NCBI RefSeq assembly: GCF_000027125.1
Contig: NC_017626.1
DNA length: 64,000 nt
Direction: 5' to 3' (one strand)
DNA from: Escherichia coli 042
GTDB lineage: Bacteria > Pseudomonadota > Gammaproteobacteria > Enterobacterales > Enterobacteriaceae
The notes under the pieces are model-generated. The model saw only the letters and a list, made by a program, of their open reading frames with translations. It did not search any database and had not been told where the DNA came from. The position numbers were made by a program, and so were the translations under genes. The first letter of the stretch is position 1. Each line of letters starts with the position of its first letter. Shown one piece after another: positions 3,446 to 31,785 of this stretch.

Positions 3446-4534
3446 TTACGCCAGTACGCCAATTGCCAGCGCGCGATCGATAAAACGAAATATCAGCTCC
3501 AGTTGGGAGCCATACTTATCTTCAAATGCCACTGTATCCGTATGCAGCTCGTTGTGATGCTTTCTGCACAAAGGCAACACAAAGAGATCATGTGCTTTTG
3601 TTCCCATTCCGCCCTGCCCGTGACCAATCAGATGATGCGGATCGTCGGCTGGCATACCGCAGCAAGCACACGGCTGTGTCTTAACCCAACGTGTGTATTT
3701 CTCCTTAACCCAGCGGCGACGTTTAGGCAGCTTCATGAAAGATTCCGGAGACTCTGGATCAACGGTGATGCTTACCACCGTCTTTTCCTGTGGTGATTTT
3801 TGTTGCTGGTGGGCGTAAGGCAACGGTGCAAGATTTTTTGTGCGTTGTTTCAATATGCTGGTGGCGGTCTGCTCTCCCGGTACGATGTCGCTTTCGCGGT
3901 ACACCGAGCAGATTTTTTCCGCTGGTAATCCCAGCGAACGACGCGATACAGCCTCAGGTAGTGCATCCACCACCTGATTGCAGACCGCCCACCAGGATAA
4001 TTCAGCCAAAGATAATTCCCGCTCCTGCGTACCGCTTATTGCGTGACGGATGACGTCAATCACCCATGCTGTCAGATTTTGTTGAGCAAGCAGCTCCAGT
4101 GATTCCGATGTCTGGTCACGCAGTTGGTTGTCGCAGTGCCAGCACAACACCATTGCGCCGGTACCATAACGGTGAATGACTGTTTCAGTGTGATGGTAAT
4201 CGCCATTAGGCCACTGGCAGGATGTAACATGACGTAATAGCCAGTCGGACAATGCGCCAACGCCGCCAGCAGCACGAATCACCCGTTCGTTACTAAAAAA
4301 CGGCAGCAATGTTTTGTCTTCCGCCAGCGGCTGGCGAACGGCAGGAACGACTCCGGATGGCAGATTACGCATGCTTTTTGGTTCCGGTTCCACCAGCACT
4401 CGAGGATTATGAAATATCTGTATGGATTCACGGCCCGGCTTAAGGACCACCAGCCCAAGCTCAGGCACCAGAACAGGTCTAAGTAATACCCGCACGTTAC
4501 CTCCAGATCCGTTGCTGGAAAGTGCGGGACGCAC
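3446..4534 (-). CDS. ydfU: Qin prophage DUF968-type protein YdfU (start may be internal to ORF)
   Basis: 362-aa ORF with CACCGMPADDPHHLIGHGQGGMGTKAHD motif; recalled YdfU. Confidence 0.75.
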   Translation of the reverse strand: MRPALSSNGSGGNVRVLLRPVLVPELGLVVLKPGRESIQIFHNPRVLVEPEPKSMRNLPSGVVPAVRQPLAEDKTLLPFFSNERVIRAAGGVGALSDWLLRHVTSCQWPNGDYHHTETVIHRYGTGAMVLCWHCDNQLRDQTSESLELLAQQNLTAWVIDVIRHAISGTQERELSLAELSWWAVCNQVVDALPEAVSRRSLGLPAEKICSVYRESDIVPGEQTATSILKQRTKNLAPLPYAHQQQKSPQEKTVVSITVDPESPESFMKLPKRRRWVKEKYTRWVKTQPCACCGMPADDPHHLIGHGQGGMGTKAHDLFVLPLCRKHHNELHTDTVAFEDKYGSQLELIFRFIDRALAIGVLA

Positions 4535-4775
4535 GTGGTGGGCGTTCGGAATAAGGCAGCCTGACAGAGATTATCCAGTGCCGATAGTCGAGACTGAGAG
4601 CTTTCTTAACCTCGAACCCGCGCCTGCGGTAAGAATGAATCAGCCATTCGGCCTGTTCTGCAGTGCATGGAGGGTGCTGGAACCATTCAGACTTGAATGC
4701 GTGAGAATACCGCCCGTGCGTGCAGGCAAGAACGGGCGAATTATCAGAATTGTAATATTTTGCGTTGCGTGCCAT
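4497..4775 (-). CDS. rem: Small prophage protein Rem-like
   Basis: 92-aa ORF immediately upstream of ydfU in K-12 order; identity by position and recollection only. Confidence 0.45.
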   Translation of the reverse strand: MARNAKYYNSDNSPVLACTHGRYSHAFKSEWFQHPPCTAEQAEWLIHSYRRRGFEVKKALSLDYRHWIISVRLPYSERPPRASRTFQQRIWR

Positions 4776-4841
4776 CGGTTTTCTCCGGTGGCACGGTGTT
4801 ACTCAGCGGGAGTTCAGCCCCGCGCAAGATTGTAGATGAGT

Positions 4842-5093
4842 TTATTCTCCTGAAAAAGCAGAAAAGCCAGCTTTTATTCCGATCTCTTTCAATGCCTGTA
4901 ATGAAGTGACAAACTCACCTTCGCGCAAGATAAATCCGTCCGTGACCCGAGCATCCACAAAATTAATTAACGCAGCCCCATTCTTTCGCAAACACATAAT
5001 GCGGTAATGACTAACAAGATTTCCATTTTCAACGCACACAGCATAGAGGCCATCTTCACAAAAAATTTTACGCAGTTCTTCGATGTTCATCAT
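4842..5093 (-). CDS. Hypothetical protein (83 aa)
   Basis: ORF only; lies downstream of the hokD terminator; no recognisable motif. Confidence 0.3.
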   Translation of the reverse strand: MMNIEELRKIFCEDGLYAVCVENGNLVSHYRIMCLRKNGAALINFVDARVTDGFILREGEFVTSLQALKEIGIKAGFSAFSGE

Positions 5094-5220
5094 CAGAATC
5101 CTTCCGGATAATTAGCTCTCCCCTTTAAGGGACCATCCCTCTTATCCCTGCGCGCTACTTAAGTATTTTTGATTCTATTCCGGCACCGTCCAGAACTTCA
5201 AACGCGTTGAAAATAAAAAC

Positions 5221-5240
5221 AAAAACCCGCCGAAGCGGGT
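5221..5240 (-). terminator. Rho-independent terminator downstream of hokD
   Basis: ACCCGCcgaaGCGGGT hairpin preceded on + strand by A-tract (T-tract on minus strand). Confidence 0.5.
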
Positions 5241-5309
5241 TAAGTGCGGGTGCGTTGAGGATGCCTGCCACATCAGAGGTGGCGAGGGATTTCTCCCCCG
5301 CCGGGTCTC

Positions 5310-5465
5310 TTACTCCTCAGGTTCGTAAGCTGTGAAGACAGCGACCTCCGTCTGGCCGGTTCGGATTCGTACCTCGCAGAGGTCTTTCCTCGTTACCAGT
5401 GCCGTCACTATGACGGTTAAACAGATGACGATCAGGGCGATTAACATCGCCTTTTGCTGCTTCAT
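5310..5465 (-). CDS. hokD: Hok-family small membrane toxin HokD (51 aa)
   Basis: Hand translation MKQQKAMLIALIVICLTVIVTALVTRKDLCEVRIRTGQTEVAVFTAYEPEE; below ORF-track size cutoff. Confidence 0.85.
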   Translation of the reverse strand: MKQQKAMLIALIVICLTVIVTALVTRKDLCEVRIRTGQTEVAVFTAYEPEE

Positions 5466-5536
5466 AGCCTGCTTCTCCTGTCAACGCAAAGCAGAAGTGT
5501 CACCTTCGGTGCGAAACAGAGATGTCATGCTTTGGT

Positions 5537-5824
5537 TCAGAGAATGCGTTTGACCGCCTCGCTATATACTTCCGAGCGTTCTCTTTTCCCAACAGAAATC
5601 ACGAAAACGACAACTTTCTCGTCTATAACCTGGTATACAAGGCGATAGCCTGAAGACCGGAGCTTAATCTTGTAACAATCAGGCATACCACGGAGCTTGT
5701 TTGCTTCAATCCGGGGTGACTCAAGTACTTCAACCAGCTTCTTTTTCAACTGTTCACGTACCGTCGAGCCCAGCTTTCGCCATTCCTTTAGTGCCCGCTC
5801 GTCAAAATCCAGAAAATACGCCAT
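5537..5824 (-). CDS. relE: mRNA interferase toxin RelE
   Basis: 95 aa MAYFLDFDERALKEWRKLGSTVREQLKKKL...; recalled identity. Confidence 0.95.
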   Translation of the reverse strand: MAYFLDFDERALKEWRKLGSTVREQLKKKLVEVLESPRIEANKLRGMPDCYKIKLRSSGYRLVYQVIDEKVVVFVISVGKRERSEVYSEAVKRIL

Positions 5825-6063
5825 CAGAGTTCATCCAGCGTCACACGTACTGGCTTAGGATTACGAAGCCGTTCTTTCACTATCTCCACAAGTTCAGCAT
5901 CTTCATCACTCAGGAGTGTCTGTTTGAACGGCAAGCGTTCATTGTCAGCGATATACTCGAGCATGAGACGAAGCGCTTCAGAAGGAGTTACACCCATTTT
6001 TTCAAGCGCGGCGTAAGAACGCGCTTTAAGTTCATCGTCAATACGCAGGTTAATGCTACCCAT
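5824..6063 (-). CDS. relB: Antitoxin RelB
   Basis: 79 aa MGSINLRIDDELKARSYAALEKMGVTPSEALR...; overlaps relE start by 1 nt. Confidence 0.95.
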   Translation of the reverse strand: MGSINLRIDDELKARSYAALEKMGVTPSEALRLMLEYIADNERLPFKQTLLSDEDAELVEIVKERLRNPKPVRVTLDEL

Positions 6064-6087
6064 GTCTTACACCTCTTGTAATTACAA

Positions 6088-6393
6088 ATGTCATTACAAG
6101 TATCGCACTACAACATGCTTAGGGCAAGTCACGAAGGAAGTCAGAAAGTAGTCGTAAGAACGGTGATCACTGTCCGCTTTGTGCCAGGAGCAGCCATTGC
6201 TAAGTCCATCCTGTATTGTGCAGGTCAGCTCGTTTTTAAAGAGTCCGGCCATCATCTTACTGGTACAGACACCATATACTTTGTGACGGTCAGGCTACAT
6301 ATGCACAACTCAACTTATTCATCTATTTTTTGCTTTAGCATGTCAGTGTTGCTTTCTCGTCGGCGGGTGAGCGGTGACCTGACCTGTCGATAA
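6088..6393 (+). CDS. ydfV: Uncharacterised Qin protein YdfV-like (101 aa)
   Basis: 101-aa ORF at the K-12 position between relB and flxA; identity by length and position. Confidence 0.45.
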   Translation: MSLQVSHYNMLRASHEGSQKVVVRTVITVRFVPGAAIAKSILYCAGQLVFKESGHHLTGTDTIYFVTVRLHMHNSTYSSIFCFSMSVLLSRRRVSGDLTCR

Positions 6394-8678: not shown

Positions 8679-9012
8679 GAAAAATCCCCCAGAGAATTGT
8701 CTGGGGACATTTTAGAATGGTTCAAAGGGGACATTACAGCTTGGTGTTAACAATAGCCTGCTTCTCCGTGCCTTTCGGCACGTAAGAGGCTAACCTACAT
8801 GTGTCTAGCATGAAATTGGCCTCAGATTAATGTTAAGCGTCTTGCAGGACGCGTAATGTTAACTGGGGCTTTTCTCTATCTGCCGTTGGTGTCCATGCCC
8901 GAGGCAGATAGCCTCAAGCACCCGCAGTCATTCTACTTAACTAAGATTTCCCCGCAAACCGTTTTTGTCCAGCACAGTAAATATCCAACTAAACCAATGG
9001 AGTTCGCTGTAT

Positions 9013-9734: not shown

Positions 9735-10344
9735 TCATCGCCCCACTCATCACAATATGCTTCGACCGGAGTTTTTCCCGCTTCATAGTCATCACGCTAG
9801 GATTCGACATCAGCAGCACTTCCACCGCGTAACTCACCATAGTCCATTAATAGTTCATCCCGCTCTTCAAAACTGATGTTATATTTAGCTGAACAAAAAT
9901 CAGCCACTTTGTTCTTCCTCATCGTCTTTTATTTCGTGGTATGAGTAATTGCAGTAGTTAAAGAAAATTTCTTATGCTCCGTCATGAATTTCCTCAGGTG
10001 TTGCGTCATCGTCCACTTCGAATACATCCTCAAAATCTCCACCAGCTATTCCCGTTTCAATAATAATTTTGAACTTTCGCATTTCACTACCGCCCTTTCG
10101 GGCGGCCTCCTGATGTTCTGAGGGTGCAGAAATCCATCCGGTTAAGGATTAAATTTTATTTACAGAACTGAATTTAATTATTCAGATATACGTATCTGTA
10201 GCCTTACGAATCTACTCACTGGATGCCTCTTTCATAAAAATAATCCAGTGGGTTTTATCGTTTTTTCCCTGTTCGTTGACAGATAACAGGTTTTCTGTCT
10301 GTCAGTGCCAGAATCTGGCTTACCGGTATTTGCGTTTCATTCCA

Positions 10345-10701
10345 TTAAAAAATCAGAACGCCGTGCGGCCTCAACACCCGAAAGGCTTCTTTAAATCTCT
10401 GTCGCGAATCATCACGCCAGGCATCTTTATTCAGCCGTCCATATTTCTTTCCCATCCAGGCGTTATCACCAACACTCTCAAGATGCGGAGGGTCTAATAC
10501 AACCATCGAAAAAGATGCGTCTGCAAATGATAATGCACGAAAATCTGCGATAATGTCAGGGCTGATAATCAAGCGTCTCCCATTGCGTAATGTGTATCCT
10601 TCTTTTCTGATATCGCTGAATATCGCCCGTTCGTCAGACTTATCGAACCAGAACATGCGGCTGCCACAGCACATATCAAGAATGGTTGCCGGTGCACTCA
10701 C
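10345..10701 (-). CDS. Small SAM-dependent methyltransferase-like protein (118 aa), probably phage DNA MTase
   Basis: Motif I-like ILDMCCGSRMFW and motif IV-like VVLDPPH; nin-like region of lambdoid prophage. Confidence 0.45.
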   Translation of the reverse strand: MSAPATILDMCCGSRMFWFDKSDERAIFSDIRKEGYTLRNGRRLIISPDIIADFRALSFADASFSMVVLDPPHLESVGDNAWMGKKYGRLNKDAWRDDSRQRFKEAFRVLRPHGVLIF

Positions 10702-11120
10702 TGCGCCACGTCCTGAAAATTACCCTGATAGAAAGCCAGTATGCGCTGCATAACTTCGCTCTTCCGGCACTCGCGACAGATTATGTTTAGGCGACTGTCG
10801 TAGCGACGTATTTCTCCGTCAGGTGATGACCAGATAAGGTCCGGATCAACCACAGCAGGTTTCTTCACCTTTGCCCTCGAGAGTTTTTTGCGGGCGTTTT
10901 GCCAGTCCTTACGCGCCTGTTCAGAGGGGAATAACCCGTAGCCGGAGTTGTATACATCGCCACTGGCTACCAGCTCTCTGGCAAGAACGCTCATCAGATA
11001 TCTAGTCGCACCTGTTTTAGCTTCCAGTTGCCGTAACGTCTCACGGCCGCTCTGGCGCACGAGTTCCACCACCTGCCATTTAATTTTTTCCCGCTCTTCT
11101 TGTGTAAAAACTTTTGCCAC
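10698..11120 (-). CDS. Hypothetical phage early protein (140 aa)
   Basis: ORF in operon with replication gene; stop overlaps downstream gene start. Confidence 0.45.
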   Translation of the reverse strand: MAKVFTQEEREKIKWQVVELVRQSGRETLRQLEAKTGATRYLMSVLARELVASGDVYNSGYGLFPSEQARKDWQNARKKLSRAKVKKPAVVDPDLIWSSPDGEIRRYDSRLNIICRECRKSEVMQRILAFYQGNFQDVAQ

Positions 11121-11160
11121 AAGTCCCCCTTAAAATTACCTCATGACCTGAAATCAACAC

Positions 11161-12126
11161 TTATCCTCTGAAACCAGGCGGAATTTCTGTATCCGGTTCA
11201 GAAATATGATTAACACAACGCTGTACAGGTGAACGTCCCAGGCGGATGACCAGTTCGTCCCATTTTTCGCGGAGCTTTGACGGGCTCATGATGTTTTTGA
11301 CCCAGAATGGATCTCGCTGAACCCGACCAAACATTTCGCAAATTTGTCTGTGGCTTCTGCCATCCAGCATCCGCATTGTGCGCACGTCATTGGCCCAGGC
11401 AGTCCAGTTAGGCTCTTTTGGTCGCATGATCTCGCCATCATCACTGGCTGCCTGTTCGTAGAGACCCACGATCCGCCCCCAGATCCACTGCGCACACGCC
11501 AAATCCTCCCTGCTACCCCACTGGCGTTTTTTCGCACTAAACACAACCGCGTCGGAGTTCCGGGTTAAAAAATCCTGTTCAGTCGTCTGCGGGTCCGGTT
11601 GCGAAGCTTCCGGACGAAAAGTGTTTTTATTCTCTGTAGTAGTCTCTGTTGTATTCTCTGTAAGATCATCAGGCCATTTTGACCCGATGACATTGGGTCG
11701 TTTTGAACCAATGGAGCGTTTCATTTTGACCTCTTCCATCGTGTCATTTTGACCTGATGGAGCGGCGCATTTTGAACCGATGGATTCGCTCAATTTGCCA
11801 CCATCTAAAAGCTCGCTCCCATAGTTGATCGTGTAGAAATTGGTCATATCGCGCTTTGATTTATTGAGCTTTTCACAACGCAAAAGCCCCAGCGTTTTCA
11901 GACTTGCAAACGCGCGCTTTAACGTTGACTCTGACCAGAATGGGAACTGTTCCAGCCATTGTTCCGTTGTGTTATAAATCCAGCGAACACCATCACATTC
12001 CATGCCGGAGTTGGTATCTCTCAACCAGTAGTGCAGTTGTTGCAAAACAATGGCTTCGTTTAAGCCAATTTTCATTGCCAGCTGCGTGTTTATAACCAGT
12101 GGGCGTTCAGCAAAAAGAAGGCTCAT
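11161..12126 (-). CDS. Putative phage replication initiation protein (HTH N-domain)
   Basis: Position downstream of cro-like dicC; N-terminal region LNEAIVLQQLHYWLRD...WIYNTTEQWLEQFPFWSESTLKRAF resembles replisome-organiser HTH domains; start chosen at MSLLFAERP. Confidence 0.5.
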   Translation of the reverse strand: MSLLFAERPLVINTQLAMKIGLNEAIVLQQLHYWLRDTNSGMECDGVRWIYNTTEQWLEQFPFWSESTLKRAFASLKTLGLLRCEKLNKSKRDMTNFYTINYGSELLDGGKLSESIGSKCAAPSGQNDTMEEVKMKRSIGSKRPNVIGSKWPDDLTENTTETTTENKNTFRPEASQPDPQTTEQDFLTRNSDAVVFSAKKRQWGSREDLACAQWIWGRIVGLYEQAASDDGEIMRPKEPNWTAWANDVRTMRMLDGRSHRQICEMFGRVQRDPFWVKNIMSPSKLREKWDELVIRLGRSPVQRCVNHISEPDTEIPPGFRG

Positions 12127-12628
12127 AATTCCATCCAGCTTTTTGTTGGTATTGCTGTCGATACGCAAGTTTGAAAGCAATTGCTTTTTCTATAAGTTCG
12201 TCAGTTTCACGATCCACTACGGCAGGATCAGCAAAAAGCAGTCCGGACTCCACCACATCGCCATATTCTTTGTTTAACCCGGCGATCATGCACGTGATGC
12301 TTTTTCCGTCAGTAATTTCACGATACAACCTGAAATCATTAATCCGGATAGCCTCCATAATTGCAGGCACTAGCGCCGTGAACTTTTCACGCTTATCCCT
12401 GGTGTCGATAGCCTTCCAGCGTTCAAATATCTTCACTCGATTAACGCCAAGCGCTCGCTGATCAATCGCGCCACCTTCATATGTGACACGCTGAACATCG
12501 ATGTTCGGGCGCTCTTTCAAAGCCCAGAATGCTTCAGTGATTAATATCGTCGCCTGCTCCTGTGTCATTCCTGGTCGACATATCCAGGCATCCAGAGCCT
12601 CACGAGCCTGTTCAGGAGTGATTTTCAT
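12107..12628 (-). CDS. Phage early protein, YdfX-like (173 aa)
   Basis: ORF directly downstream of dicC in same operon. Confidence 0.45.
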   Translation of the reverse strand: MKITPEQAREALDAWICRPGMTQEQATILITEAFWALKERPNIDVQRVTYEGGAIDQRALGVNRVKIFERWKAIDTRDKREKFTALVPAIMEAIRINDFRLYREITDGKSITCMIAGLNKEYGDVVESGLLFADPAVVDRETDELIEKAIAFKLAYRQQYQQKAGWNYEPSFC

Positions 12629-12842
12629 TGTTCAACCGCCCCGCCCGCTTCGTCTTACGATATTCATCATAAACTTTGGGATCATACTGAAGCTCCCCGC
12701 CAGATGCCTCCTGTAGACGCATCGCGCGACCTTCGGGAACTAAATCCCCTTTCCAGCTATAAAGCGAAGCCAAACGAATACCTGCTGCTTGTGCAAGTTT
12801 TGTTTTTGAACCGAAATACAAAAGAGCGTCAGTTTTAAGCAT
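12612..12842 (-). CDS. dicC: Cro-like repressor DicC
   Basis: 76 aa MLKTDALLYFGSKTKLAQAAGIRLASLYSWKGDLVPEGRAMRLQEASGGE...; divergent from dicA. Confidence 0.9.
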   Translation of the reverse strand: MLKTDALLYFGSKTKLAQAAGIRLASLYSWKGDLVPEGRAMRLQEASGGELQYDPKVYDEYRKTKRAGRLNNENHS

Positions 12843-12925
12843 TTAAAACACCTTTATTGTTAGCCATAACTAACAAGATAGATGTTAACAAAAACATAGT
12901 CAATACGATTTAGCATTAGCTAACT

Positions 12926-13333
12926 ATGGAAACAAAAAATTTAACTATCGGCGAACGCATCAGGTATCGTCGGAAAAACCTCAAACACACCCAAAGGTCT
13001 CTTGCTAAAGCCCTGAAAATCTCCCATGTGTCTGTATCACAATGGGAACGGGGTGATAGTGAACCTACAGGGAAGAACCTTTTTGCCCTCAGCAAAGTAT
13101 TGCAATGCTCACCAACATGGATTCTATTTGGCGATGAAGACAAGCAACCAACACCACCTGTTGAGAAGCCAGTTGCCTTATCCCCCAAAGAACTAGAGCT
13201 CCTTGAGCTGTTTAATGCACTGCCAGAATCAGAACAGGATACCCAGCTCGCCGAAATGCGAGCTCGAGTAAAAAACTTCAATAAACTCTTTGAAGAATTA
13301 CTAAAAGCCCGTCAGCGGACAAATAAAAGATAA
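12926..13333 (+). CDS. dicA: CI-like HTH repressor DicA
   Basis: 135 aa METKNLTIGERIRYRRKNLKHTQRSLAKALKISHVSVSQWERGD...; recalled identity. Confidence 0.95.
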   Translation: METKNLTIGERIRYRRKNLKHTQRSLAKALKISHVSVSQWERGDSEPTGKNLFALSKVLQCSPTWILFGDEDKQPTPPVEKPVALSPKELELLELFNALPESEQDTQLAEMRARVKNFNKLFEELLKARQRTNKR

Positions 13334-14373: not shown

Positions 14374-14431
14374 TTTCTGGTGACGTTTGGCGGTATCAGT
14401 TTTACTCCGTGACTGCTCTGCCGCCCTTTTT
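14374..14431 (+). ncRNA. dicF: DicF small RNA (ftsZ-inhibiting sRNA of dicB operon)
   Basis: TTTCTGGTGACGTTTGGCGGTATCAGTTTTACTCCGTGACTGCTCTGCCGCCCTTTTT matches recalled DicF incl. terminator hairpin plus U-tract; boundaries approximate. Confidence 0.7.
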
Positions 14432-24036: not shown

Positions 24037-24342
24037 ATGAAACTCTCAACCTGCTGTGCCGCGCTTCTGCTCGCCCTCGCCTCACCCGCGGTACTCGCCG
24101 CGCCGGGATCCTGTGAGCGCATACAGAGCGATATATCACAGCGCATTATCAATAATGGCGTACCCGAAAGCAGCTTCACGTTAAGTATTGTACCCAATGA
24201 CCAGGTTGATCAGCCTGATTCCCAGGTCGTCGGGCATTGCGCTAATGATACGCATAAAATTCTCTACACCCGCACCACCAGCGGTAACGTCTCTGCTCCC
24301 GCGCAGTCTACCCAGGATGGCGCGCCTGCCGAACCGCAGTAA
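24037..24342 (+). CDS. ynfD: Secreted protein YnfD
   Basis: MKLSTCCAALLLALASPAVLAAPGSCERIQS...; 101 aa. Confidence 0.85.
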   Translation: MKLSTCCAALLLALASPAVLAAPGSCERIQSDISQRIINNGVPESSFTLSIVPNDQVDQPDSQVVGHCANDTHKILYTRTTSGNVSAPAQSTQDGAPAEPQ

Positions 24343-24540
24343 CACATTATCGACTGAACGCCGGATACGACACATCCGGCGATTTGAACATACAACATAA
24401 TCCCACCTTATTACTCATACCCTTCTATTGATATGGATTAATAATTCTTAACCCAAAATAGGTAGACTTCCTCTATTGTTAGCGCGCTAAATATTCAATA
24501 TATAAACTTTTATATAACGATAAAGAACAGGGAGTGAGTT

Positions 24541-26967
24541 ATGTCCAAAAATGAACAAATGGTGGGCATCAGCCGCAGAACACTCGTTAAATCTACCGCG
24601 ATAGGTTCTCTGGCGCTGGCTGCAGGCGGTTTTTCTTTACCGTTCACCCTGCGCAGTGCAGCGGCAGCGGTACAACAGGCCAGCGAGAAAGTGGTCTGGG
24701 GTGCCTGTTCCGTCAACTGTGGTAGCCGCTGTGCACTTCGTCTGCATGTTAAAGATAATGAAGTGACCTGGGTGGAAACTGACAACACCGGCAGCGATGA
24801 GTATGGCAATCATCAAGTACGTGCCTGTTTGCGCGGTCGCTCCATCCGTCGGCGTATTAATCATCCCGATCGCTTGAATTACCCAATGAAACGCGTGGGC
24901 AAACGCGGCGAAGGCAAATTCGAACGGATTAGCTGGGATGAAGCCCTGGATACTATCGCCAGTAGCCTGAAAAAAACCGTCGAACAATATGGCAATGAGG
25001 CTGTATATATTCAGTACTCTTCGGGGATTGTTGGCGGCAATATGACCCGCTCTTCACCATCAGCCTCGGCGGTCAAACGCCTGATGAACTGCTACGGCGG
25101 TTCACTCAATCAGTATGGCTCCTACAGCACCGCGCAAATTTCCTGTGCCATGCCCTACACCTACGGCAGTAATGATGGCAACAGCACCACGGATATTGAA
25201 AACAGCAAGCTGGTCGTGATGTTTGGTAACAACCCGGCAGAAACCCGCATGAGCGGCGGTGGCATCACTTATCTTCTTGAAAAAGCGCGCGAGAAATCGA
25301 ACGCCAAAATGATTGTTATCGATCCGCGATATACCGATACAGCTGCTGGTCGTGAAGACGAATGGCTACCTATTCGCCCGGGCACCGATGCCGCGCTGGT
25401 TGCGGGTATTGCCTGGGTATTGATTAACGAAAATCTCGTTGATCAACCTTTTCTCGATAAATACTGCGTCGGCTATGACGAAAAAACCTTACCCGCAGAT
25501 GCACCAAAAAATGGTCACTATGAAGCCTATATTCTTGGTGAAGGTGACGATAAAACAGCGAAAACGCCGCAGTGGGCTTCGCAAATTACCGGTATCCCGG
25601 TGGAGCGTATCATCAAACTGGCGCGTGAAATTGGCACAGCAAAACCCGCTTATATCTGCCAGGGCTGGGGACCGCAACGCCAGGCAAACGGCGAGCTGAC
25701 TGCACGTGCTATTGCGATGTTGCCTATTCTGACGGGCAATGTCGGCATCAGCGGCGGGAGTAGTGGCGCGCGTGAATCGACCTATACCATTACCATAGAA
25801 CGCCTGCCGGTGCTGGATAATCCGGTCAAAACGTCAATCTCCTGCTTCAGCTGGACGGATGCTATCGATCATGGCCCGCAAATGACGGCAATCCGCGACG
25901 GTGTCCGGGGCAAAGATAAACTGGATGTGCCCATTAAGTTCATCTGGAACTACGCGGGAAATACCCTGGTTAATCAGCATTCTGACATCAACAAAACGCA
26001 TGAAATTCTGCAGGACGAATCGAAATGCGAAATGATTGTGGTCATCGAAAACTTTATGACCTCATCGGCAAAATATGCCGACATTCTGCTGCCAGACCTG
26101 ATGACCGTTGAGCAGGAAGATATTATTCCTAACGACTACGCCGGTAACATGGGATATCTCATTTTCCTTCAGCCAGTCACCAGCGAAAAATTCGAACGCA
26201 AACCGATTTACTGGATCCTGAGTGAGGTCGCGAAACGTCTTGGACCTGACGTCTATCAAAAGTTCACAGAAGGTCGCACGCAGGAACAATGGTTGCAACA
26301 TCTGTACGCCAAAATGCTTGCCAAAGATCCGGCGTTACCGTCTTACGACGAACTGAAAAAAATGGGTATCTATAAGCGTAAAGATCCTAATGGTCATTTT
26401 GTCGCCTACAAAGCATTTCGTGACGACCCCGAGGCAAATCCACTTAAAACGCCTTCCGGTAAGATTGAAATTTATTCCAGCAAGCTGGCGGAAATTGCCC
26501 GTACCTGGGAACTGGAAAAAGATGAAGTGATAAGCCCACTGCCGGTTTATGCCTCAACCTTTGAAGGCTGGGACTCCCCTGAACGTAGTACCTTTCCACT
26601 GCAACTGTTTGGTTTCCATTACAAATCCCGTACTCACTCGACCTACGGCAACATTGATGTCCTGAAGGCTGCCTGCCGTCAGGAGGTGTGGATCAACCCT
26701 ATAGACGCACAGAAACGTGGGATTGCCAACGGCGATATGGTGCGGGTGTATAACCATCGTGGCGAAGTTCGGCTACCAGCCAAAGTGACACCACGCATTC
26801 TCCCTGGGGTTAGCGCTATGGGCCAGGGAGCCTGGCACGAGGCCAATATGTCTGGCGATAAAATCGACCATGGCGGCTGTGTGAATACGCTAACCACTCT
26901 GCGCCCTTCACCACTGGCGAAGGGAAACCCGCAGCACACTAATCTGGTCGAGATCGAAAAAATATAA
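24541..26967 (+). CDS. ynfE: Tat-exported molybdopterin oxidoreductase YnfE (DmsA paralog, selenate reductase)
   Basis: Twin-arginine leader SRRTLVKSTAIGSLALAAGGF; CSVNCGSRC 4Fe-4S motif; 808 aa. Confidence 0.95.
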   Translation: MSKNEQMVGISRRTLVKSTAIGSLALAAGGFSLPFTLRSAAAAVQQASEKVVWGACSVNCGSRCALRLHVKDNEVTWVETDNTGSDEYGNHQVRACLRGRSIRRRINHPDRLNYPMKRVGKRGEGKFERISWDEALDTIASSLKKTVEQYGNEAVYIQYSSGIVGGNMTRSSPSASAVKRLMNCYGGSLNQYGSYSTAQISCAMPYTYGSNDGNSTTDIENSKLVVMFGNNPAETRMSGGGITYLLEKAREKSNAKMIVIDPRYTDTAAGREDEWLPIRPGTDAALVAGIAWVLINENLVDQPFLDKYCVGYDEKTLPADAPKNGHYEAYILGEGDDKTAKTPQWASQITGIPVERIIKLAREIGTAKPAYICQGWGPQRQANGELTARAIAMLPILTGNVGISGGSSGARESTYTITIERLPVLDNPVKTSISCFSWTDAIDHGPQMTAIRDGVRGKDKLDVPIKFIWNYAGNTLVNQHSDINKTHEILQDESKCEMIVVIENFMTSSAKYADILLPDLMTVEQEDIIPNDYAGNMGYLIFLQPVTSEKFERKPIYWILSEVAKRLGPDVYQKFTEGRTQEQWLQHLYAKMLAKDPALPSYDELKKMGIYKRKDPNGHFVAYKAFRDDPEANPLKTPSGKIEIYSSKLAEIARTWELEKDEVISPLPVYASTFEGWDSPERSTFPLQLFGFHYKSRTHSTYGNIDVLKAACRQEVWINPIDAQKRGIANGDMVRVYNHRGEVRLPAKVTPRILPGVSAMGQGAWHEANMSGDKIDHGGCVNTLTTLRPSPLAKGNPQHTNLVEIEKI

Positions 26968-27027
26968 CCCACTACAACCATAAATTCTGGCATGACATTT
27001 TGTTTGAAAAGCAATAAGTGAGTAATG

Positions 27028-29451
27028 ATGAAAATCCATACCACAGAGGCGCTCATGAAGGCTGAAATCAGCCGTAGAAGTCTGATGAAAACCTCCGCAC
27101 TTGGCAGTCTCGCGCTGGCAAGCAGTGCTTTCACTCTGCCATTTTCCCAAATGGTCCGAGCGGCAGAGACACCGGTAGAAGAGAAAGCGGTCTGGAGTTC
27201 CTGCACCGTTAACTGCGGGAGCCGCTGTCTGTTACGTTTGCATGTGAAAGATGACACCGTGTACTGGGTGGAGTCTGATACGACAGGAGACGACGTCTAC
27301 GGTAATCATCAGGTTCGAGCGTGTTTACGCGGGCGCTCTATCCGTCGACGGATGAATCATCCTGATAGGTTGAAATATCCCATGAAGCGCGTCGGCAAGC
27401 GCGGTGAAGGTAAATTTGAACGGATAAGTTGGGATGAAGCCCTGGATACCATCAGTGATAATCTTCGGCGGATCCTTAAAGATTACGGCAATGAGGCTGT
27501 ACATGTTCTCTATGGAACAGGCGTAGATGGCGGAAACATCACCAACTCAAACGTCCCGTACCGTCTGATGAACTCTTGCGGTGGTTTTCTCAGTCGCTAT
27601 GGCAGCTACAGTACCGCTCAAATCAGTGCCGCAATGAGTTATATGTTCGGTGCCAATGATGGCAACAGCCCGGATGATATCGCCAATACGAAACTGGTCG
27701 TTATGTTCGGAAATAACCCGGCAGAAACGCGGATGAGCGGCGGTGGTGTCACTTACTACGTCGAGCAAGCCCGAGAACGTTCAAACGCACGCATGATCGT
27801 CATCGATCCACGTTATAACGACACTGCTGCCGGGCGTGAAGATGAATGGCTGCCAATTCGCCCAGGCACCGATGGCGCACTGGCCTGTGCGATTGCCTGG
27901 GTACTGATTACTGAAAACATGGTCGATCAGCCATTTCTCGACAAATATTGTGTTGGTTACGATGAAAAAACGCTGCCCGCCAACGCACCACGTAACGCGC
28001 ATTATAAAGCCTATATTCTGGGCGAAGGGCCTGACGGCATAGCTAAAACGCCGGAATGGGCAGCAAAAATCACCAGCATCCCGGCAGAAAAAATTATCCA
28101 GTTGGCACGAGAGATCGGTTCAGCAAAACCTGCTTATATTTGTCAGGGTTGGGGGCCACAACGACACTCCAACGGCGAGCAAACGTCCCGCGCTATTGCC
28201 ATGCTTTCCGTTCTCACCGGTAACGTCGGCATAAACGGCGGCAACTCAGGTGTACGCGAAGGTAGCTGGGATCTGGGGGTAGAATGGTTCCCGATGCTCG
28301 AGAATCCTGTTAAAACGCAGATTTCCGTCTTTACATGGACAGATGCCATCGACCATGGTACGGAAATGACCGCGACCCGTGATGGTGTTCGTGGAAAAGA
28401 AAAACTGGATGTCCCCATCAAGTTTTTATGGTGCTACGCCAGTAACACATTGATCAATCAACATGGCGACATCAATCACACCCATGAGGTGCTTCAGGAT
28501 GACAGCAAGTGCGAGATGATTGTTGGCATTGACCACTTCATGACGGCCTCGGCTAAGTATTGCGATATCCTGTTGCCCGACCTGATGCCAACAGAGCAAG
28601 AAGACCTTATCTCTCATGAATCTGCAGGGAATATGGGCTATGTGATCCTCGCCCAACCCGCAACCTCAGCAAAATTTGAACGCAAACCCATCTACTGGAT
28701 GCTGAGTGAAGTCGCCAAACGCTTAGGACCGGACGTTTATCAAACCTTTACTGAAGGTCGCAGTCAGCATGAATGGATCAAATATCTCCATGCGAAAACG
28801 AAGGAACGTAACCCTGAGATGCCCGACTACGAGGAGATGAAAACGACCGGGATCTTTAAGAAAAAATGCCCGGAAGAACACTACGTCGCTTTCCGCGCAT
28901 TCCGTGAAGATCCACAGGCAAACCCGTTGAAAACACCTTCGGGGAAAATCGAAATTTATTCTGAACGACTGGCGACGATTGCGGATACCTGGGAATTGAA
29001 AAAAGATGAAATTATTCATCCCCTTCCTGCGTATACCCCAGGTTTTGATGGCTGGGACGATCCCCTGCGGAAAACCTATCCACTGCAGTTAACGGGCTTC
29101 CACTACAAAGCGCGTACCCACTCCAGCTACGGCAATATTGATGTGTTACAGCAGGCCTGCCCACAAGAGGTGTGGATCAACCCTATTGATGCTCAGGCAC
29201 GCGGTATCCGTCATGGCGATACCGTGCGGGTATTTAACAATAATGGAGAAATGCTGATTGCCGCAAAAGTGACTCCGCGTATTCTGCCTGGCGTTACCGC
29301 CATCGGGCAAGGTGCGTGGCTTAAAGCGGATATGTTTGGTGACCGGGTCGATCACGGCGGCAGTATCAATATTCTGACCTCTCACCGCCCTTCACCGCTG
29401 GCAAAGGGAAACCCGTCGCACAGCAATCTTGTCCAGATCGAAAAGGTTTAA
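27028..29451 (+). CDS. ynfF: Tat-exported molybdopterin oxidoreductase YnfF (DmsA paralog)
   Basis: SRRSLMKTSALGSLALASSAF Tat leader; CTVNCGSRC; tandem paralog of ynfE. Confidence 0.95.
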   Translation: MKIHTTEALMKAEISRRSLMKTSALGSLALASSAFTLPFSQMVRAAETPVEEKAVWSSCTVNCGSRCLLRLHVKDDTVYWVESDTTGDDVYGNHQVRACLRGRSIRRRMNHPDRLKYPMKRVGKRGEGKFERISWDEALDTISDNLRRILKDYGNEAVHVLYGTGVDGGNITNSNVPYRLMNSCGGFLSRYGSYSTAQISAAMSYMFGANDGNSPDDIANTKLVVMFGNNPAETRMSGGGVTYYVEQARERSNARMIVIDPRYNDTAAGREDEWLPIRPGTDGALACAIAWVLITENMVDQPFLDKYCVGYDEKTLPANAPRNAHYKAYILGEGPDGIAKTPEWAAKITSIPAEKIIQLAREIGSAKPAYICQGWGPQRHSNGEQTSRAIAMLSVLTGNVGINGGNSGVREGSWDLGVEWFPMLENPVKTQISVFTWTDAIDHGTEMTATRDGVRGKEKLDVPIKFLWCYASNTLINQHGDINHTHEVLQDDSKCEMIVGIDHFMTASAKYCDILLPDLMPTEQEDLISHESAGNMGYVILAQPATSAKFERKPIYWMLSEVAKRLGPDVYQTFTEGRSQHEWIKYLHAKTKERNPEMPDYEEMKTTGIFKKKCPEEHYVAFRAFREDPQANPLKTPSGKIEIYSERLATIADTWELKKDEIIHPLPAYTPGFDGWDDPLRKTYPLQLTGFHYKARTHSSYGNIDVLQQACPQEVWINPIDAQARGIRHGDTVRVFNNNGEMLIAAKVTPRILPGVTAIGQGAWLKADMFGDRVDHGGSINILTSHRPSPLAKGNPSHSNLVQIEKV

Positions 29452-29461
29452 GGAGTAGCCC

Positions 29462-30079
29462 ATGACCACACAATATGGATTTTTTATCGATTCCAGCCGC
29501 TGTACTGGCTGTAAAACCTGCGAACTGGCGTGCAAAGATTTTAAAGATCTTGGCCCGGAAGTCAGTTTCCGCCGTATTTATGAATATGCTGGCGGCGACT
29601 GGCAGGAAGATAATGGCGTCTGGCACCAGAACGTGTTCGCTTATTATCTCTCCATCTCCTGTAACCATTGCGATGACCCCGCATGTACAAAAGTCTGCCC
29701 CAGCGGCGCAATGCATAAGCGTGAAGATGGCTTTGTGGTGGTTGATGAAAATGTTTGTATCGGCTGCCGCTACTGCCACATGGCTTGTCCGTACGGCGCG
29801 CCACAGTACAATGCTGAAAAAGGGCACATGACGAAGTGCGATGGTTGTTATTCGCGCGTCGCCGAGGGGAAACAACCCATATGTGTCGAATCCTGCCCGC
29901 TGCGTACACTTGAGTTCGGTCCAATTGAAGAGCTGCGCCAGAAGCACGGCACTCTTGCTGCCGTCGCGCCACTGCCGCGCGCGCATTTCACAAAACCCAA
30001 TATCGTTATCAAACCTAACGCCAACAGCCGCCCGACCGGCGATACCACTGGTTATCTGGCTAATCCGGAGGAAGTGTAA
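29462..30079 (+). CDS. ynfG: Fe-S subunit YnfG (DmsB-like)
   Basis: Four ferredoxin Cys clusters (CTGCKTCELACK, CNHCDDPAC, CIGCRYCHMACP, CDGCYSRV...CVESCP). Confidence 0.95.
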   Translation: MTTQYGFFIDSSRCTGCKTCELACKDFKDLGPEVSFRRIYEYAGGDWQEDNGVWHQNVFAYYLSISCNHCDDPACTKVCPSGAMHKREDGFVVVDENVCIGCRYCHMACPYGAPQYNAEKGHMTKCDGCYSRVAEGKQPICVESCPLRTLEFGPIEELRQKHGTLAAVAPLPRAHFTKPNIVIKPNANSRPTGDTTGYLANPEEV

Positions 30080-30080
30080 A

Positions 30081-30935
30081 ATGGGAAATGGATGGCATGA
30101 ATGGCCACTGGTTATCTTTACCGTATTGGGTCAATGCGTAGTAGGCGCGCTGATTGTTAGCGGAATTGGCTGGTTCGCCGCCAAAAATGACGCAGACCGT
30201 CAGCACATTGTTCGTGGCATGTTTTTCCTCTGGCTGTTGATGGGCATCGGGTTTATTGCCTCTGTCATGCACCTGGGATCGCCACTGCGGGCGTTTAACT
30301 CGCTGAATCGAATCGGAGCTTCTGGTCTGAGTAACGAGATTGCTGCCGGTTCAATATTTTTTGCCGTAGGCGGATTATGGTGGCTGGTGGCGGTCATCGG
30401 TAAAATGCCGCAAGCGTTGGGGAAACTCTGGTTACTTGTCAGCATGGCGCTCGGCGTCATTTTCGTCTGGATGATGACCTGCGTGTATCAAATCGACACA
30501 GTGCCAACCTGGCATAACGGTTACACTACGCTGGCTTTCTTCCTGACAGTATTGTTGAGCGGTCCAATACTTGCTGCCGCAATTCTGCGGGCAGCCCGCG
30601 TTACATTTAATACCACACCATTTGCCATCATTAGCGTTCTGGCGCTGATCGCTTGTGCCGGGGTGATTGTGCTGCAAGGTTTGTCTCTGGCGTCTATTCA
30701 CTCATCCGTACAACAAGCCAGCGCACTGGTACCAGATTACGCCTCCTTACAGGTCTGGCGTGTGGTATTGTTATGCACAGGTCTAGGATGCTGGCTTTGT
30801 CCGCTCATTCGTCGCCGTGAACCTCACGTTGCCGGACTTATTCTGGGGCTAATCCTCATACTTGGCGGTGAGATGATCGGGCGTGTGCTCTTTTATGGCC
30901 TGCACATGACGGTAGGAATGGCCATTGCAGGTTAA
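30081..30935 (+). CDS. ynfH: Membrane anchor subunit YnfH (DmsC-like)
   Basis: MGNGWHEWPLVIFTVLGQCVVGALIVSG...; polytopic; ATG at 30081 one nt after ynfG stop. Confidence 0.9.
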   Translation: MGNGWHEWPLVIFTVLGQCVVGALIVSGIGWFAAKNDADRQHIVRGMFFLWLLMGIGFIASVMHLGSPLRAFNSLNRIGASGLSNEIAAGSIFFAVGGLWWLVAVIGKMPQALGKLWLLVSMALGVIFVWMMTCVYQIDTVPTWHNGYTTLAFFLTVLLSGPILAAAILRAARVTFNTTPFAIISVLALIACAGVIVLQGLSLASIHSSVQQASALVPDYASLQVWRVVLLCTGLGCWLCPLIRRREPHVAGLILGLILILGGEMIGRVLFYGLHMTVGMAIAG

Positions 30936-30977
30936 CAAATTGGTGCGGGGCAACCCGCACATTTCAGGATGTTAGGA

Positions 30978-31592
30978 ATGACCCATTTTTCACAGCAAGA
31001 TAATTTTTCTGTCGCGGCGCGCGTGTTGGGCGCGCTGTTTTATTACGCTCCAGAGAGTGCGGAAGCCGCACCACTGGTTGCGGTACTCACCAGTGACGGC
31101 TGGGAAACTCAGTGGCCTCTACCAGAAGCGTCATTAGCGCCGCTGGTGACGGCTTTTCAGGCACAGAGTGAAGAGACTCGCGCCCAGGCCTGGCAACGTT
31201 TGTTTGTCGGTCCGTGGGCTCTGCCATCACCGCCGTGGGGGTCGGTCTGGCTGGATCGCGAATCTGTGCTGTTTGGCGATTCAACATTGGCACTTCGTCA
31301 GTGGATGCGCGAGAAAGGCATTCAGTTTGAAATGCAGCAAAACGAACCGGAAGATCATTTTGGTTCACTGCTGTTGATGGCTGCGTGGTTGGCGGAGAAT
31401 GGTCGCCAGACAGAATGCGAAGAATTGCTGGCATGGCACCTTTTTCCGTGGTCAACACGTTTTCTTGACGTTTTTATCGAAAAAGCAGAACACCCTTTCT
31501 ACCGTGCACTGGGTGAACTGGCTCGCTTAACGCTGGCGCAATGGCAATCACAACTGTTAATTCCTGTCGCGGTTAAACCACTCTTTCGATAG
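30978..31592 (+). CDS. dmsD: Tat proofreading chaperone DmsD
   Basis: MTHFSQQDNFSVAARVLGALFYYAPESAEAAPLVAVL...; 204 aa. Confidence 0.95.
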   Translation: MTHFSQQDNFSVAARVLGALFYYAPESAEAAPLVAVLTSDGWETQWPLPEASLAPLVTAFQAQSEETRAQAWQRLFVGPWALPSPPWGSVWLDRESVLFGDSTLALRQWMREKGIQFEMQQNEPEDHFGSLLLMAAWLAENGRQTECEELLAWHLFPWSTRFLDVFIEKAEHPFYRALGELARLTLAQWQSQLLIPVAVKPLFR

Positions 31593-31785
31593 GATCACCG
31601 TAATATTGCCGGATGGTGGCGATTACGCGCAATTCGGCAATAATAGGTTACAGTGTCACGTTTTTTATCTCTTAAAGCACGCACTGCTTTTGCGTCTGGC
31701 TTCTTTTGCCGCAAAATAGTCGCCCGTGTTTCATTGCCCATTTCTGCTCATGCATCATCTACACATCTATCCGGATCTGCGCACT

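Follow-up and report, generated by a model that had tools for sequence, protein, structure and literature searches.

The ynfEFGH-dmsD operon of Escherichia coli 042 and the probably ancient origin of its two catalytic subunit genes

Positions 24541-30935 of the window, the 64,000-nucleotide stretch of E. coli chromosome that was analysed, almost certainly represent the E. coli ynfEFGH-dmsD operon, a paralogue of the DMSO reductase DmsABC, in an intact and ordinary copy, as judged by sequence comparison. The operon is already known, and nothing found contradicts the identification. The interval, placed in the ynfEFGH-dmsD operon in the initial annotation, begins precisely at the start of ynfE and ends at the stop of ynfH. 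Two same-strand open reading frames of 808 aa (24541-26967 and 27025-29451) are followed by a 205-aa gene and a 284-aa gene. All five genes were intact and lay on one strand, in the order ynfE-ynfF-ynfG-ynfH-dmsD, with ynfD and clcB on either side, the neighbours they also have in K-12 and strain N3. A 7.4-kb stretch was matched in 5424 of 5426 complete E. coli genomes, and the best matches were annotated as ynfE, ynfF, ynfG, ynfH and dmsD. Each of the five proteins scored above the cut-off of a curated family model, with 98.0-99.8% identity to the K-12 counterparts. The K-12 operon (b1587-b1591) has the same genes, order, strand, spacers and flanks; its ynfE-ynfF spacer differs by one base, and the divergence is only allelic and uneven (dS 0.094 for ynfE, 0.043 for ynfF, 0.008 for ynfG and 0.073 for ynfH). 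What the genes are, that they are intact and in what order they stand is established by the analysis itself, as are the leader and cofactor motifs, the sister grouping of the catalytic subunits and the age of their split.

The first gene, ynfE (24541..26967, + strand), encodes a predicted Mo-bisMGD catalytic subunit of 808 aa, probably exported by the Tat system (NF041885, Pfam, motifs). A 60-nt spacer to the annotated ATG of ynfF (26968..27027, +) carries the ynfF ribosome-binding region. The second gene, ynfF (27028..29451, +), encodes another predicted Mo-bisMGD subunit, likewise probably Tat-exported (807 aa; NF041884, motifs). K-12 and PGAP annotate the second of two adjacent ATGs (27028) as its start; the first ATG, at 27025, gives 808 aa.

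That YnfE and YnfF are paralogues, as initially proposed, was borne out by pairwise alignment. With 565/801 identities (71%), 1226 bits and E = 0 in BLASTP, the match was far beyond chance and not of low identity. Both proteins carried the Pfam domains Molybdop_Fe4S4, Molybdopterin and Molydop_binding, and both passed TIGR02166 (1395 bits for YnfE and 1287 for YnfF, cut-off 778). The specific models separated them: YnfE reached 1790.1 bits with NF041885 (cut-off 1675) and stayed below the cut-off of the YnfF model NF041884 (1471 vs 1650), while YnfF reached 1775.2 bits with NF041884 (cut-off 1650) and stayed below that of the YnfE model NF041885 (1482 vs 1675). YnfE was 98.5% identical to K-12 YnfE.

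The N-terminal Cys motifs were alike, as had been claimed: C-x3-C-x3-C-x31-C in both, with an identical VNCGSRC core, at residues 56-96 in YnfE and 59-99 in YnfF. The Tat leaders, described initially as near-identical, share the twin-arginine motif (SRRTLVK at residue 11 of YnfE, SRRSLMK at residue 15 of YnfF) and the hydrophobic core, but "near-identical" overstates the likeness, with 20 of 51 aligned positions matching (39%). The leaders are homologous, with 17 of 26 matches from ISRR to LPF (hand count on the alignment), and their n-regions and c-regions are unrelated. The Ser in YS(T/S)AQI was aligned across YnfE, YnfF and DmsA. It may correspond to the molybdenum ligand Ser-176 of DmsA, an assignment that depends on the numbering offset assumed. 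A PDB search returned no solved DmsA, YnfE or YnfF structure among its matches, the closest of which were soluble Tor/Dor-type reductases.

The proposal that the two catalytic subunits share one FeS subunit and one anchor follows from gene content, since the window contains a single ynfG and a single ynfH, and published genetics agrees (PMC5203670, PMC12724226). The single-copy ynfG (29462..30079, +) encodes a predicted four-cluster [4Fe-4S] electron-transfer subunit of 205 aa (TIGR02951, 262.8 bits, cut-off 214.1), whose 16 Cys occupy positions identical to those of DmsB. Starting 1 nt after the ynfG stop, ynfH (30081..30935, +), also single-copy, encodes a putative membrane anchor and quinol-oxidising subunit of 284 aa. 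It matched Pfam DmsC (PF04976) above the cut-off across its full length (426 bits) and has eight hydrophobic segments. A 364-aa frame at 29841 in the list of open reading frames was rejected as an artefact, because the real ynfH start at 30081 gives the 284-aa protein with the full-length DmsC match. The fifth operon gene, dmsD (30978..31592, +; 204 aa), lies beyond 24541-30935. Its product matched NF008632 with 344 bits (cut-off 162) and was 98.0% identical to K-12 DmsD, the Tat proofreading chaperone of DmsA, YnfE and YnfF (PMC5203670, PMC10609526, PMC3316669). The ynfH-dmsD spacer contains a perfect 7-bp hairpin, GTGCGGG-GCAA-CCCGCAC (30943..30960, +), which the terminator scan flagged on the minus strand only.

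The ynf products resemble E. coli DmsABC in being built of three subunits on the same plan, with the same kind of Tat leader, the same Cys group and the same chaperone. YnfE and YnfF are each 67% identical to DmsA, YnfG is 93.2% identical to DmsB, and YnfH 57.7% to DmsC. The dms operon has one A gene and no chaperone gene; in ynf there are two A genes, and dmsD is included. The 93% identity of YnfG and DmsB is not due to gene conversion: synonymous sites were saturated (pS 0.73) at a dN/dS of 0.015, so purifying selection accounts for it.

The view of ynfE and ynfF as a tandem duplication held up, as the genes are adjacent, on the same strand, separated by 60 nt and each other's closest paralogue. 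In a tree with 86 relatives, the clade of YnfE plus YnfF was recovered in 200/200 bootstraps, as were the YnfE core (200/200) and the YnfF core (200/200), and none of the 200 bootstraps grouped either protein with DmsA. This tree was built by neighbour-joining on corrected distances and rooted at the midpoint, not by maximum likelihood against a defined outgroup. It supports a duplication in the ynf lineage that came after the ynf/dms split. Synonymous sites between ynfE and ynfF were saturated (pS 0.72, dN/dS 0.09); pS never fell below 0.58 in any 50-codon window, and the longest identical run was 20 nt. These values ruled out a recent duplication or gene conversion between the two genes, and point to an ancient duplicate pair. 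If descent was vertical, the duplication would have happened before the families of the Enterobacterales diverged. Purifying selection has maintained both copies ever since; against Pseudocitrobacter, dN was 0.093 for ynfE and 0.068 for ynfF, with synonymous sites saturated.

The pair could also have arisen from a tandem duplication of the whole operon (ABC-ABC), with later loss of the inner B and C genes, rather than from copying of the A gene alone. Relatives do show candidate intermediate layouts: in Budvicia, a YnfE-type ABC with a DmsA-type ABC and dmsD behind it; in Endozoicomonas, ABC-ABC; and in Serratia silvae and Rahnella, A-A-B-C-D with a DmsA-type second A. However, these relatives pair a YnfE-type A with a DmsA-type A, never with a YnfF-type A, and nothing of a B or C gene is left in the 60-nt ynfE-ynfF spacer. 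Synonymous saturation, moreover, wipes out the traces that would separate the two routes. On balance, we consider the whole-operon route rather unlikely.

A horizontal gain of ynfF, inserted beside ynfE instead of duplicated in place, is very improbable. Its appeal lies in the patchiness of the YnfF clade: Serratia oryzae carries a member as an orphan gene, and a Deferribacteraceae MAG contig bears a 70%-identical one. Yet YnfF is sister to YnfE (in all bootstraps, as above), GC content is even along the operon (0.49-0.53), and the synteny seen in Escherichia recurs in Pseudocitrobacter and, in the form of a collapsed hybrid, in Citrobacter. The tandem YnfE/YnfF of the Salmonella enterica ynfEFGH-dmsD operon, compared here through its published description, are likewise 71% identical (PMC5203670). 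No mobile-element scars were visible at the ynfE-ynfF junction.

That one copy in the window is redundant and already decaying is refuted by the intact frames, both full length without stops, and we give this idea next to no credence here. All cofactor motifs are intact, and YnfF shares 99.8% of its residues with the K-12 protein, at a dN/dS of 0.025. Decay is nevertheless true of ynfF in other strains: ZH193 has two deletions inside the gene (window positions 27742-28321 and 29096-29369), N3 a frameshift in its annotation, and the E. albertii type strain a TGG-to-TAG change. Of 5426 complete E. coli genomes, 665 (~12%) lacked an internal ynfF segment, vs 115 that lacked a ynfE 5' segment, so ynfF is dispensable in some lineages.

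Other variants were found among relatives. The pair has collapsed to one gene in several Citrobacter species, with the ynfE promoter, the YnfE leader and the YnfF catalytic body. Operons with a single YnfE-type A gene occur in Kluyvera, Kosakonia, Enterobacter, Phytobacter and Mangrovibacter, and ynfE-dmsD remnants without ynfG and ynfH were also seen. One locus of an Enterobacter MAG, with a DmsA-type A and B beside an ynfH-type C and dmsD, was rejected as a dms/ynf recombinant. It is a probable assembly chimera, because the ynfE contig of the same MAG ends directly after ynfE and the near-identical B genes could have served as a bridge.

An FNR-type site, TTGATATGGATTAA (24428..24441, +), with one mismatch to TTGAT-N4-ATCAA, lies ~100 nt upstream of the ynfE ATG, and its position is conserved in Citrobacter as TTGATATGCATTAA. 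The bare pattern was not enriched in the window (6 matches vs 3.5 expected), so the weight of the site rests on position, conservation and the literature. A single FNR site at -40.5 of the ynfEFGH-dmsD promoter and a direct action of FNR have been reported (PMC3688515), as has control of the operon by FNR and NarL (PMC6561318). From this spacing, transcription would start at about 24475. No consensus sigma-70 promoter was found upstream of ynfE or ynfF in a promoter scan, which gave fewer hits in the window than in shuffles; the missing consensus would fit an activator-dependent promoter, but is uninformative.

A RyhB-complementary stretch (27009-27027) spans the ynfF ribosome-binding region, with 17 predicted pairs to RyhB nt 40-56. 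The predicted dG was -20.8 kcal/mol, a value that 6 of 1000 shuffles reached. Duplex folding was restricted to RyhB nt 31-62, as full-length RyhB gave over-extended, uninformative pairings. RyhB repression of ynfF has been demonstrated with a ynfF(-60..+24)-lacZ fusion (PMC4666370), and the dmsA leader region proved RyhB-complementary in our analysis too (see also PMC4666370). An Rfam scan of the whole window detected no RNA family inside the operon.

Selenate and tellurate are the reported substrates of the ynf enzyme (PMC5203670, PMC12096835), and their reduction in vivo is reported to need ynfE and ynfF (PMC5203670, PMC12724226; Fujita 2021 as cited in PMC12096835). E. coli deleted for ynfEF no longer reduces selenate, and regains this ability with a foreign A subunit that works through the host YnfG, YnfH and DmsD (PMC12724226). 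The SrnABCD system of Enterobacter cloacae matches the ynf operon in its B, C and D genes and in its regulation by FNR; SrnA belongs to the YnfE group, is 86% identical to E. coli YnfE and functions with E. coli YnfG, YnfH and DmsD (PMC12724226). Unlike the E. coli pair, SrnABCD has a single A gene and no YnfF. In Salmonella, YnfE acts as the principal selenate reductase and YnfF as a minor one, and DmsD binds the leaders of DmsA, YnfE and YnfF (PMC5203670).

The following picture draws on publications and inference for what the enzyme does, how its subunits are shared, how it is regulated and which way electrons run. The ynf enzyme would be a membrane-bound, periplasm-facing selenate/tellurate reductase. 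YnfE and YnfF would serve as alternative catalytic subunits. Each has a Mo-bis(MGD) domain preceded by a twin-arginine leader and an N-terminal [4Fe-4S] site, and either would assemble with YnfG, the only four-cluster ferredoxin, and YnfH, the only eight-helix anchor. Before Tat export, DmsD would bind the hydrophobic core of the YnfE, YnfF and DmsA leaders. Electrons would pass from menaquinol through YnfH to the YnfG clusters, the N-terminal cluster, molybdenum and finally the substrate. The promoter upstream of ynfE is expected to be activated by FNR and repressed by NarL, and ynfF translation may additionally be repressed, within the operon, by the small RNA RyhB.

Tentatively, and against what we hold to be the better odds, ynfE/ynfF might form an unstable unit of two modules rather than a static textbook duplicate, the second gene having a role of its own that depends on the niche. 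Such a role is suggested by the RyhB-complementary initiation region that ynfF has of its own inside the operon, by its conservation, where kept, at least as strong as that of ynfE, and by the ynfF segment losses together with the collapsed Citrobacter hybrids.

The locus is ordinary, intact and well annotated, which settles the call made in the initial annotation, and it needs no further attention. In its own field the operon matters for selenate/tellurate reduction, and because dmsD is required for maturation of DmsABC, YnfE and YnfF. Some clues, if modest ones, to what maintains a second catalytic subunit come from the loss of ynfF in a large fraction of sequenced E. coli, the Citrobacter hybrids and the ynfE-dmsD remnants. 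Should YnfF act on a substrate of its own, such variants would already provide a natural experiment in which to look for it.

The two large open reading frames (ORFs) at 24541-26967 and 27025-29451 lie on the same strand and encode 808 aa each. They are followed by ORFs of 205 aa (29462-30079), one ending at 30935, and of 207 aa (30969-31592). When window positions 24300-31700 were compared by megablast with every complete E. coli genome, 5424 of 5426 matched, the top one being 99.3% identical, with ynfE, ynfF, ynfG, ynfH and dmsD annotated under the match. The upstream (rspA, ynfA, ynfB, speG, ynfC, ynfD) and downstream (clcB, bioD/bidA, mlc) neighbours were identical in strain N3 and K-12 MG1655. 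The locus is already known and fully annotated. Based on K-12 start codons, the genes, all on the + strand, are ynfE (24541-26967, 808 aa, 98.5% identity to K-12), ynfF (27028-29451, 807 aa, 99.8%), ynfG (29462-30079, 205 aa, 99.0%), ynfH (30081-30935, 284 aa, 98.6%) and dmsD (30978-31592, 204 aa, 98.0%). The ynfF start codon is the second of two adjacent ATGs, and all five reading frames are free of internal stops. The tandem DmsA-paralog pair described in the initial annotation was confirmed, and its interpretation supported; the interval given for it begins exactly with the start codon of ynfE and closes with the stop of ynfH, leaving dmsD outside.

Both catalytic (A) subunits were cleanly told apart by NCBI curated models. 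The YnfE model scored 1790 bits for the first large protein (cut-off 1675) and the YnfF model 1775 bits for the second (cut-off 1650), each being below cut-off for the other. YnfG passed the DMSO/selenate B-subunit model and DmsD its equivalog model, and YnfH, with a corrected start, matched Pfam DmsC over its full length (426 bits). Both A subunits carry Fe4S4, molybdopterin and MGD-binding domains, one twin-arginine motif each (SRRTLVK, SRRSLMK) and the cysteine group C-x3-C-x3-C-x31-C, whose VNCGSRC core is the same in both. They also conserve a serine aligned with the DmsA serine that we take, by its numbering, to be the molybdenum ligand. The iron-sulfur (B) subunit YnfG has 16 cysteines at exactly the positions of DmsB, and the membrane anchor (C) YnfH has eight hydrophobic segments. 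A PDB search returned no solved DmsA, YnfE or YnfF structure, the closest entries being soluble TorA/DorA-type enzymes.

YnfE and YnfF shared 565 of 801 residues by BLASTP (71%), and low identity, which would speak against a duplicated pair, was not found. Amino-acid identity was 70.4% for YnfE-YnfF (global alignment), 67.3% for YnfE-DmsA and 66.7% for YnfF-DmsA. The genes were 69% identical in DNA; their proportion of synonymous differences (pS) was 0.72, which is saturation, and at least 0.58 in all 50-codon windows, and the longest identical run was 20 nt. Saturated pS and short identical runs indicate that the duplication is ancient. By the same two measures, pS per 50-codon window and identical runs, there was no sign of recent gene conversion between ynfE and ynfF. 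The initial annotation called the Tat leaders near-identical, a description that the alignment does not support, with matches at only 20 of 51 positions. The common part is the ISRR-to-LPF stretch (17 of 26 positions, counted manually from the alignment), and the n-regions and c-regions are unrelated. Published descriptions agree: set against YnfF and DmsA, YnfE has an n-region called 'very different' (PMC5203670), and the h-region and early c-region, recognised by DmsD, are alike among leaders (PMC3316669).

Compared with the A subunits (67%) and the C subunits (YnfH-DmsC, 57.7%, or 58%), the identity of YnfG to DmsB was far higher (93.2%), with the 16 cysteines in register. Gene conversion as the source of this identity was ruled out by saturated synonymous sites (29462-30079 vs K-12 dmsB, pS 0.73); purifying selection (dN/dS 0.015, the ratio of nonsynonymous to synonymous divergence) accounts for it instead.

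For the origin of the pair, species-representative genomes were scanned once with a YnfF/YnfE/DmsA alignment, yielding 79 loci, whose genes were classified by ORF calling and BLASTP. From 86 full-length A subunits a neighbour-joining tree was computed (753 columns, signal peptide left out), in which YnfE + YnfF, the YnfE core and the YnfF core each had a bootstrap of 200/200, and YnfF + DmsA and YnfE + DmsA each had 0/200. This makes YnfE and YnfF sister lineages, the relationship predicted by a duplication within the ynf lineage, which is thereby supported. The YnfE clade included Budvicia, Serratia, Rahnella, Rouxiella and Enterobacteriaceae; under vertical descent, the split between YnfE and YnfF predates those families. 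Against Pseudocitrobacter, dN was 0.093 for ynfE and 0.068 for ynfF with synonymous sites saturated, and purifying selection is still acting on both copies. The A gene may have been copied alone, or a whole ABC-ABC tandem may have formed, with later loss of the inner B and C; for the second route, Budvicia, Endozoicomonas, Serratia and Rahnella offer possible intermediate layouts.

Budvicia (locus L018, 9971-18761) has a YnfE-type ABC set followed by a DmsA-type ABC set and dmsD, the ABC copies being 81% identical in DNA. Serratia silvae and Rahnella (L019, L023, L057) have a YnfE-type and a DmsA-type A gene, then B, C and D, the chaperone gene. Two Endozoicomonas loci (L082, L083) are ABC-ABC with B-C parts 89% identical. 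A 4.9-kb contig binned to a Deferribacteraceae metagenome-assembled genome (MAG; L028) carries a 70% YnfF-like A gene, B and dmsD, which points to contamination or transfer. In an Enterobacter sp. MAG, a DmsA-type A and B are joined to a ynfH-type C and dmsD (L041); this is probably an assembly chimera via near-identical B genes, because the ynfE contig of the same MAG (L014) stops just past ynfE.

Loss of ynfF recurs among strains. An internal 541-bp ynfF piece was found in 4761 of 5426 complete E. coli genomes (missing in 665) and a 1.3-kb ynfE 5' piece in 5311 (missing in 115), counted as genomes rather than independent events and uncorrected for clonal sampling. In strain ZH193, ynfF (L084, 4988-6557) is a pseudogene from which two internal segments of 580 and 274 bp are deleted (window 27742-28321 and 29096-29369), and in strain N3 it is annotated as frameshifted. 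The E. albertii type strain NBRC 107761 has a TGG-to-TAG change at the Trp of IAWVLI (L005, 1505-1507) in a YnfF otherwise 98-99% identical to that of E. coli; the gene was inactivated recently, or else the draft assembly is in error. A ynfF-type gene is also broken into two ORFs in Citrobacter sp. FP75 (L012). In E. coli NCTC9966 (L085, 1045-5031), ynfE is annotated as incomplete and lacks its 5' end (window 24541 to about 25936), and just upstream there are a hypothetical gene, an IS3 transposase and a fragment of an integrase; its ynfF, ynfG, ynfH and dmsD are still intact.

Citrobacter youngae CCUG 30791 (L006, about 3790-6216), Citrobacter sp. Cu233 (L007, about 9974-12400) and C. werkmanii (L008, about 9968-12394) have one hybrid A gene at the syntenic ynfD/ynfG position. 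Its 5' part is ynfE (promoter region, ribosome-binding site, signal peptide), and all five YnfE-diagnostic residues as far as about residue 36 are present. YnfF-diagnostic sites from residue 59 on are nearly all YnfF-type (two are YnfE-type and a few are neither). The junction lies near the leader/mature boundary, and the mature domain is YnfF. The hybrid looks like a collapsed tandem pair, the pattern expected of a deletion fusing both genes. Unlike these strains, C. youngae ATCC 29220 (L026) kept a pure ynfE. Lelliottia (L013), a Pluralibacter MAG (L017), Cedecea (L025) and strain RIT691 (L027) have ynfE directly followed by dmsD (about 9950-13200 each), without ynfG or ynfH; their YnfE presumably borrows DmsB and DmsC of a separate dmsABC operon.

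Transcription is under direct activation by FNR, whose site is at -40.5 (PMC3688515), and is repressed by NarL, as cited in PMC6561318. An FNR box with one mismatch is found at 24428-24441, its position conserved in Citrobacter. The 60-nt ynfE-ynfF spacer ends 3' in AAGCAATAAGTGAGTAATG (27009-27027), covering the ynfF ribosome-binding region and first ATG. This segment has 17 predicted pairs with nt 40-56 of the small RNA RyhB (dG -20.8 kcal/mol, a value as low in 6 of 1000 shuffles), and RyhB represses ynfF translation via the -60 to +24 region (PMC4666370). Predicted complementarity was stronger for K-12 dmsA (-29.5) and weaker for ynfE (-17.9). An AGTGAG motif just 5' of the ATG is common to the ynfE, ynfF and dmsA leader regions.

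The side observations, here and above, are small leads rather than discoveries about this window. Synonymous divergence (dS) from K-12 was uneven across the operon (24541-31592; ynfE 0.094, ynfF 0.043, ynfG 0.008, ynfH 0.073, dmsD 0.065), and only 40 of 5430 records reached at least 99% identity across the 7.4 kb, which together suggest a recombination mosaic. The 42-nt ynfH-dmsD spacer contains a 7-bp perfect hairpin with a GCAA loop (GTGCGGGGCAACCCGCAC, 30943-30960), with no T-run 3' of it on the + strand. Rfam matches above gathering score to the cspA thermoregulator (1514-1906, - strand), sok antitoxin RNA (8752-8923, - strand) and DicF (14375-14426, + strand) suggest a cryptic-prophage origin for the first part of the window.

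Our analysis supplies a parts list, and the mechanism is drawn from the literature and DmsABC homology. DmsD binds the A-subunit leader, after which Tat exports the A subunit with YnfG alongside (PMC5203670, PMC10609526). Electrons from menaquinol would enter at YnfH and reach molybdenum by way of the four clusters of YnfG and the A subunit's N-terminal cluster; selenate or tellurate would be reduced there (PMC12724226; Fujita 2021 via PMC12096835). In Salmonella, most selenate reductase activity comes from YnfE and little from YnfF (PMC5203670), and selenate reduction is lost in an E. coli ynfEF deletion (PMC12724226). A foreign A subunit rescues that deletion through the host YnfG, YnfH and DmsD (PMC12724226), which directly supports the view that the catalytic subunit can be exchanged on a common B and C.
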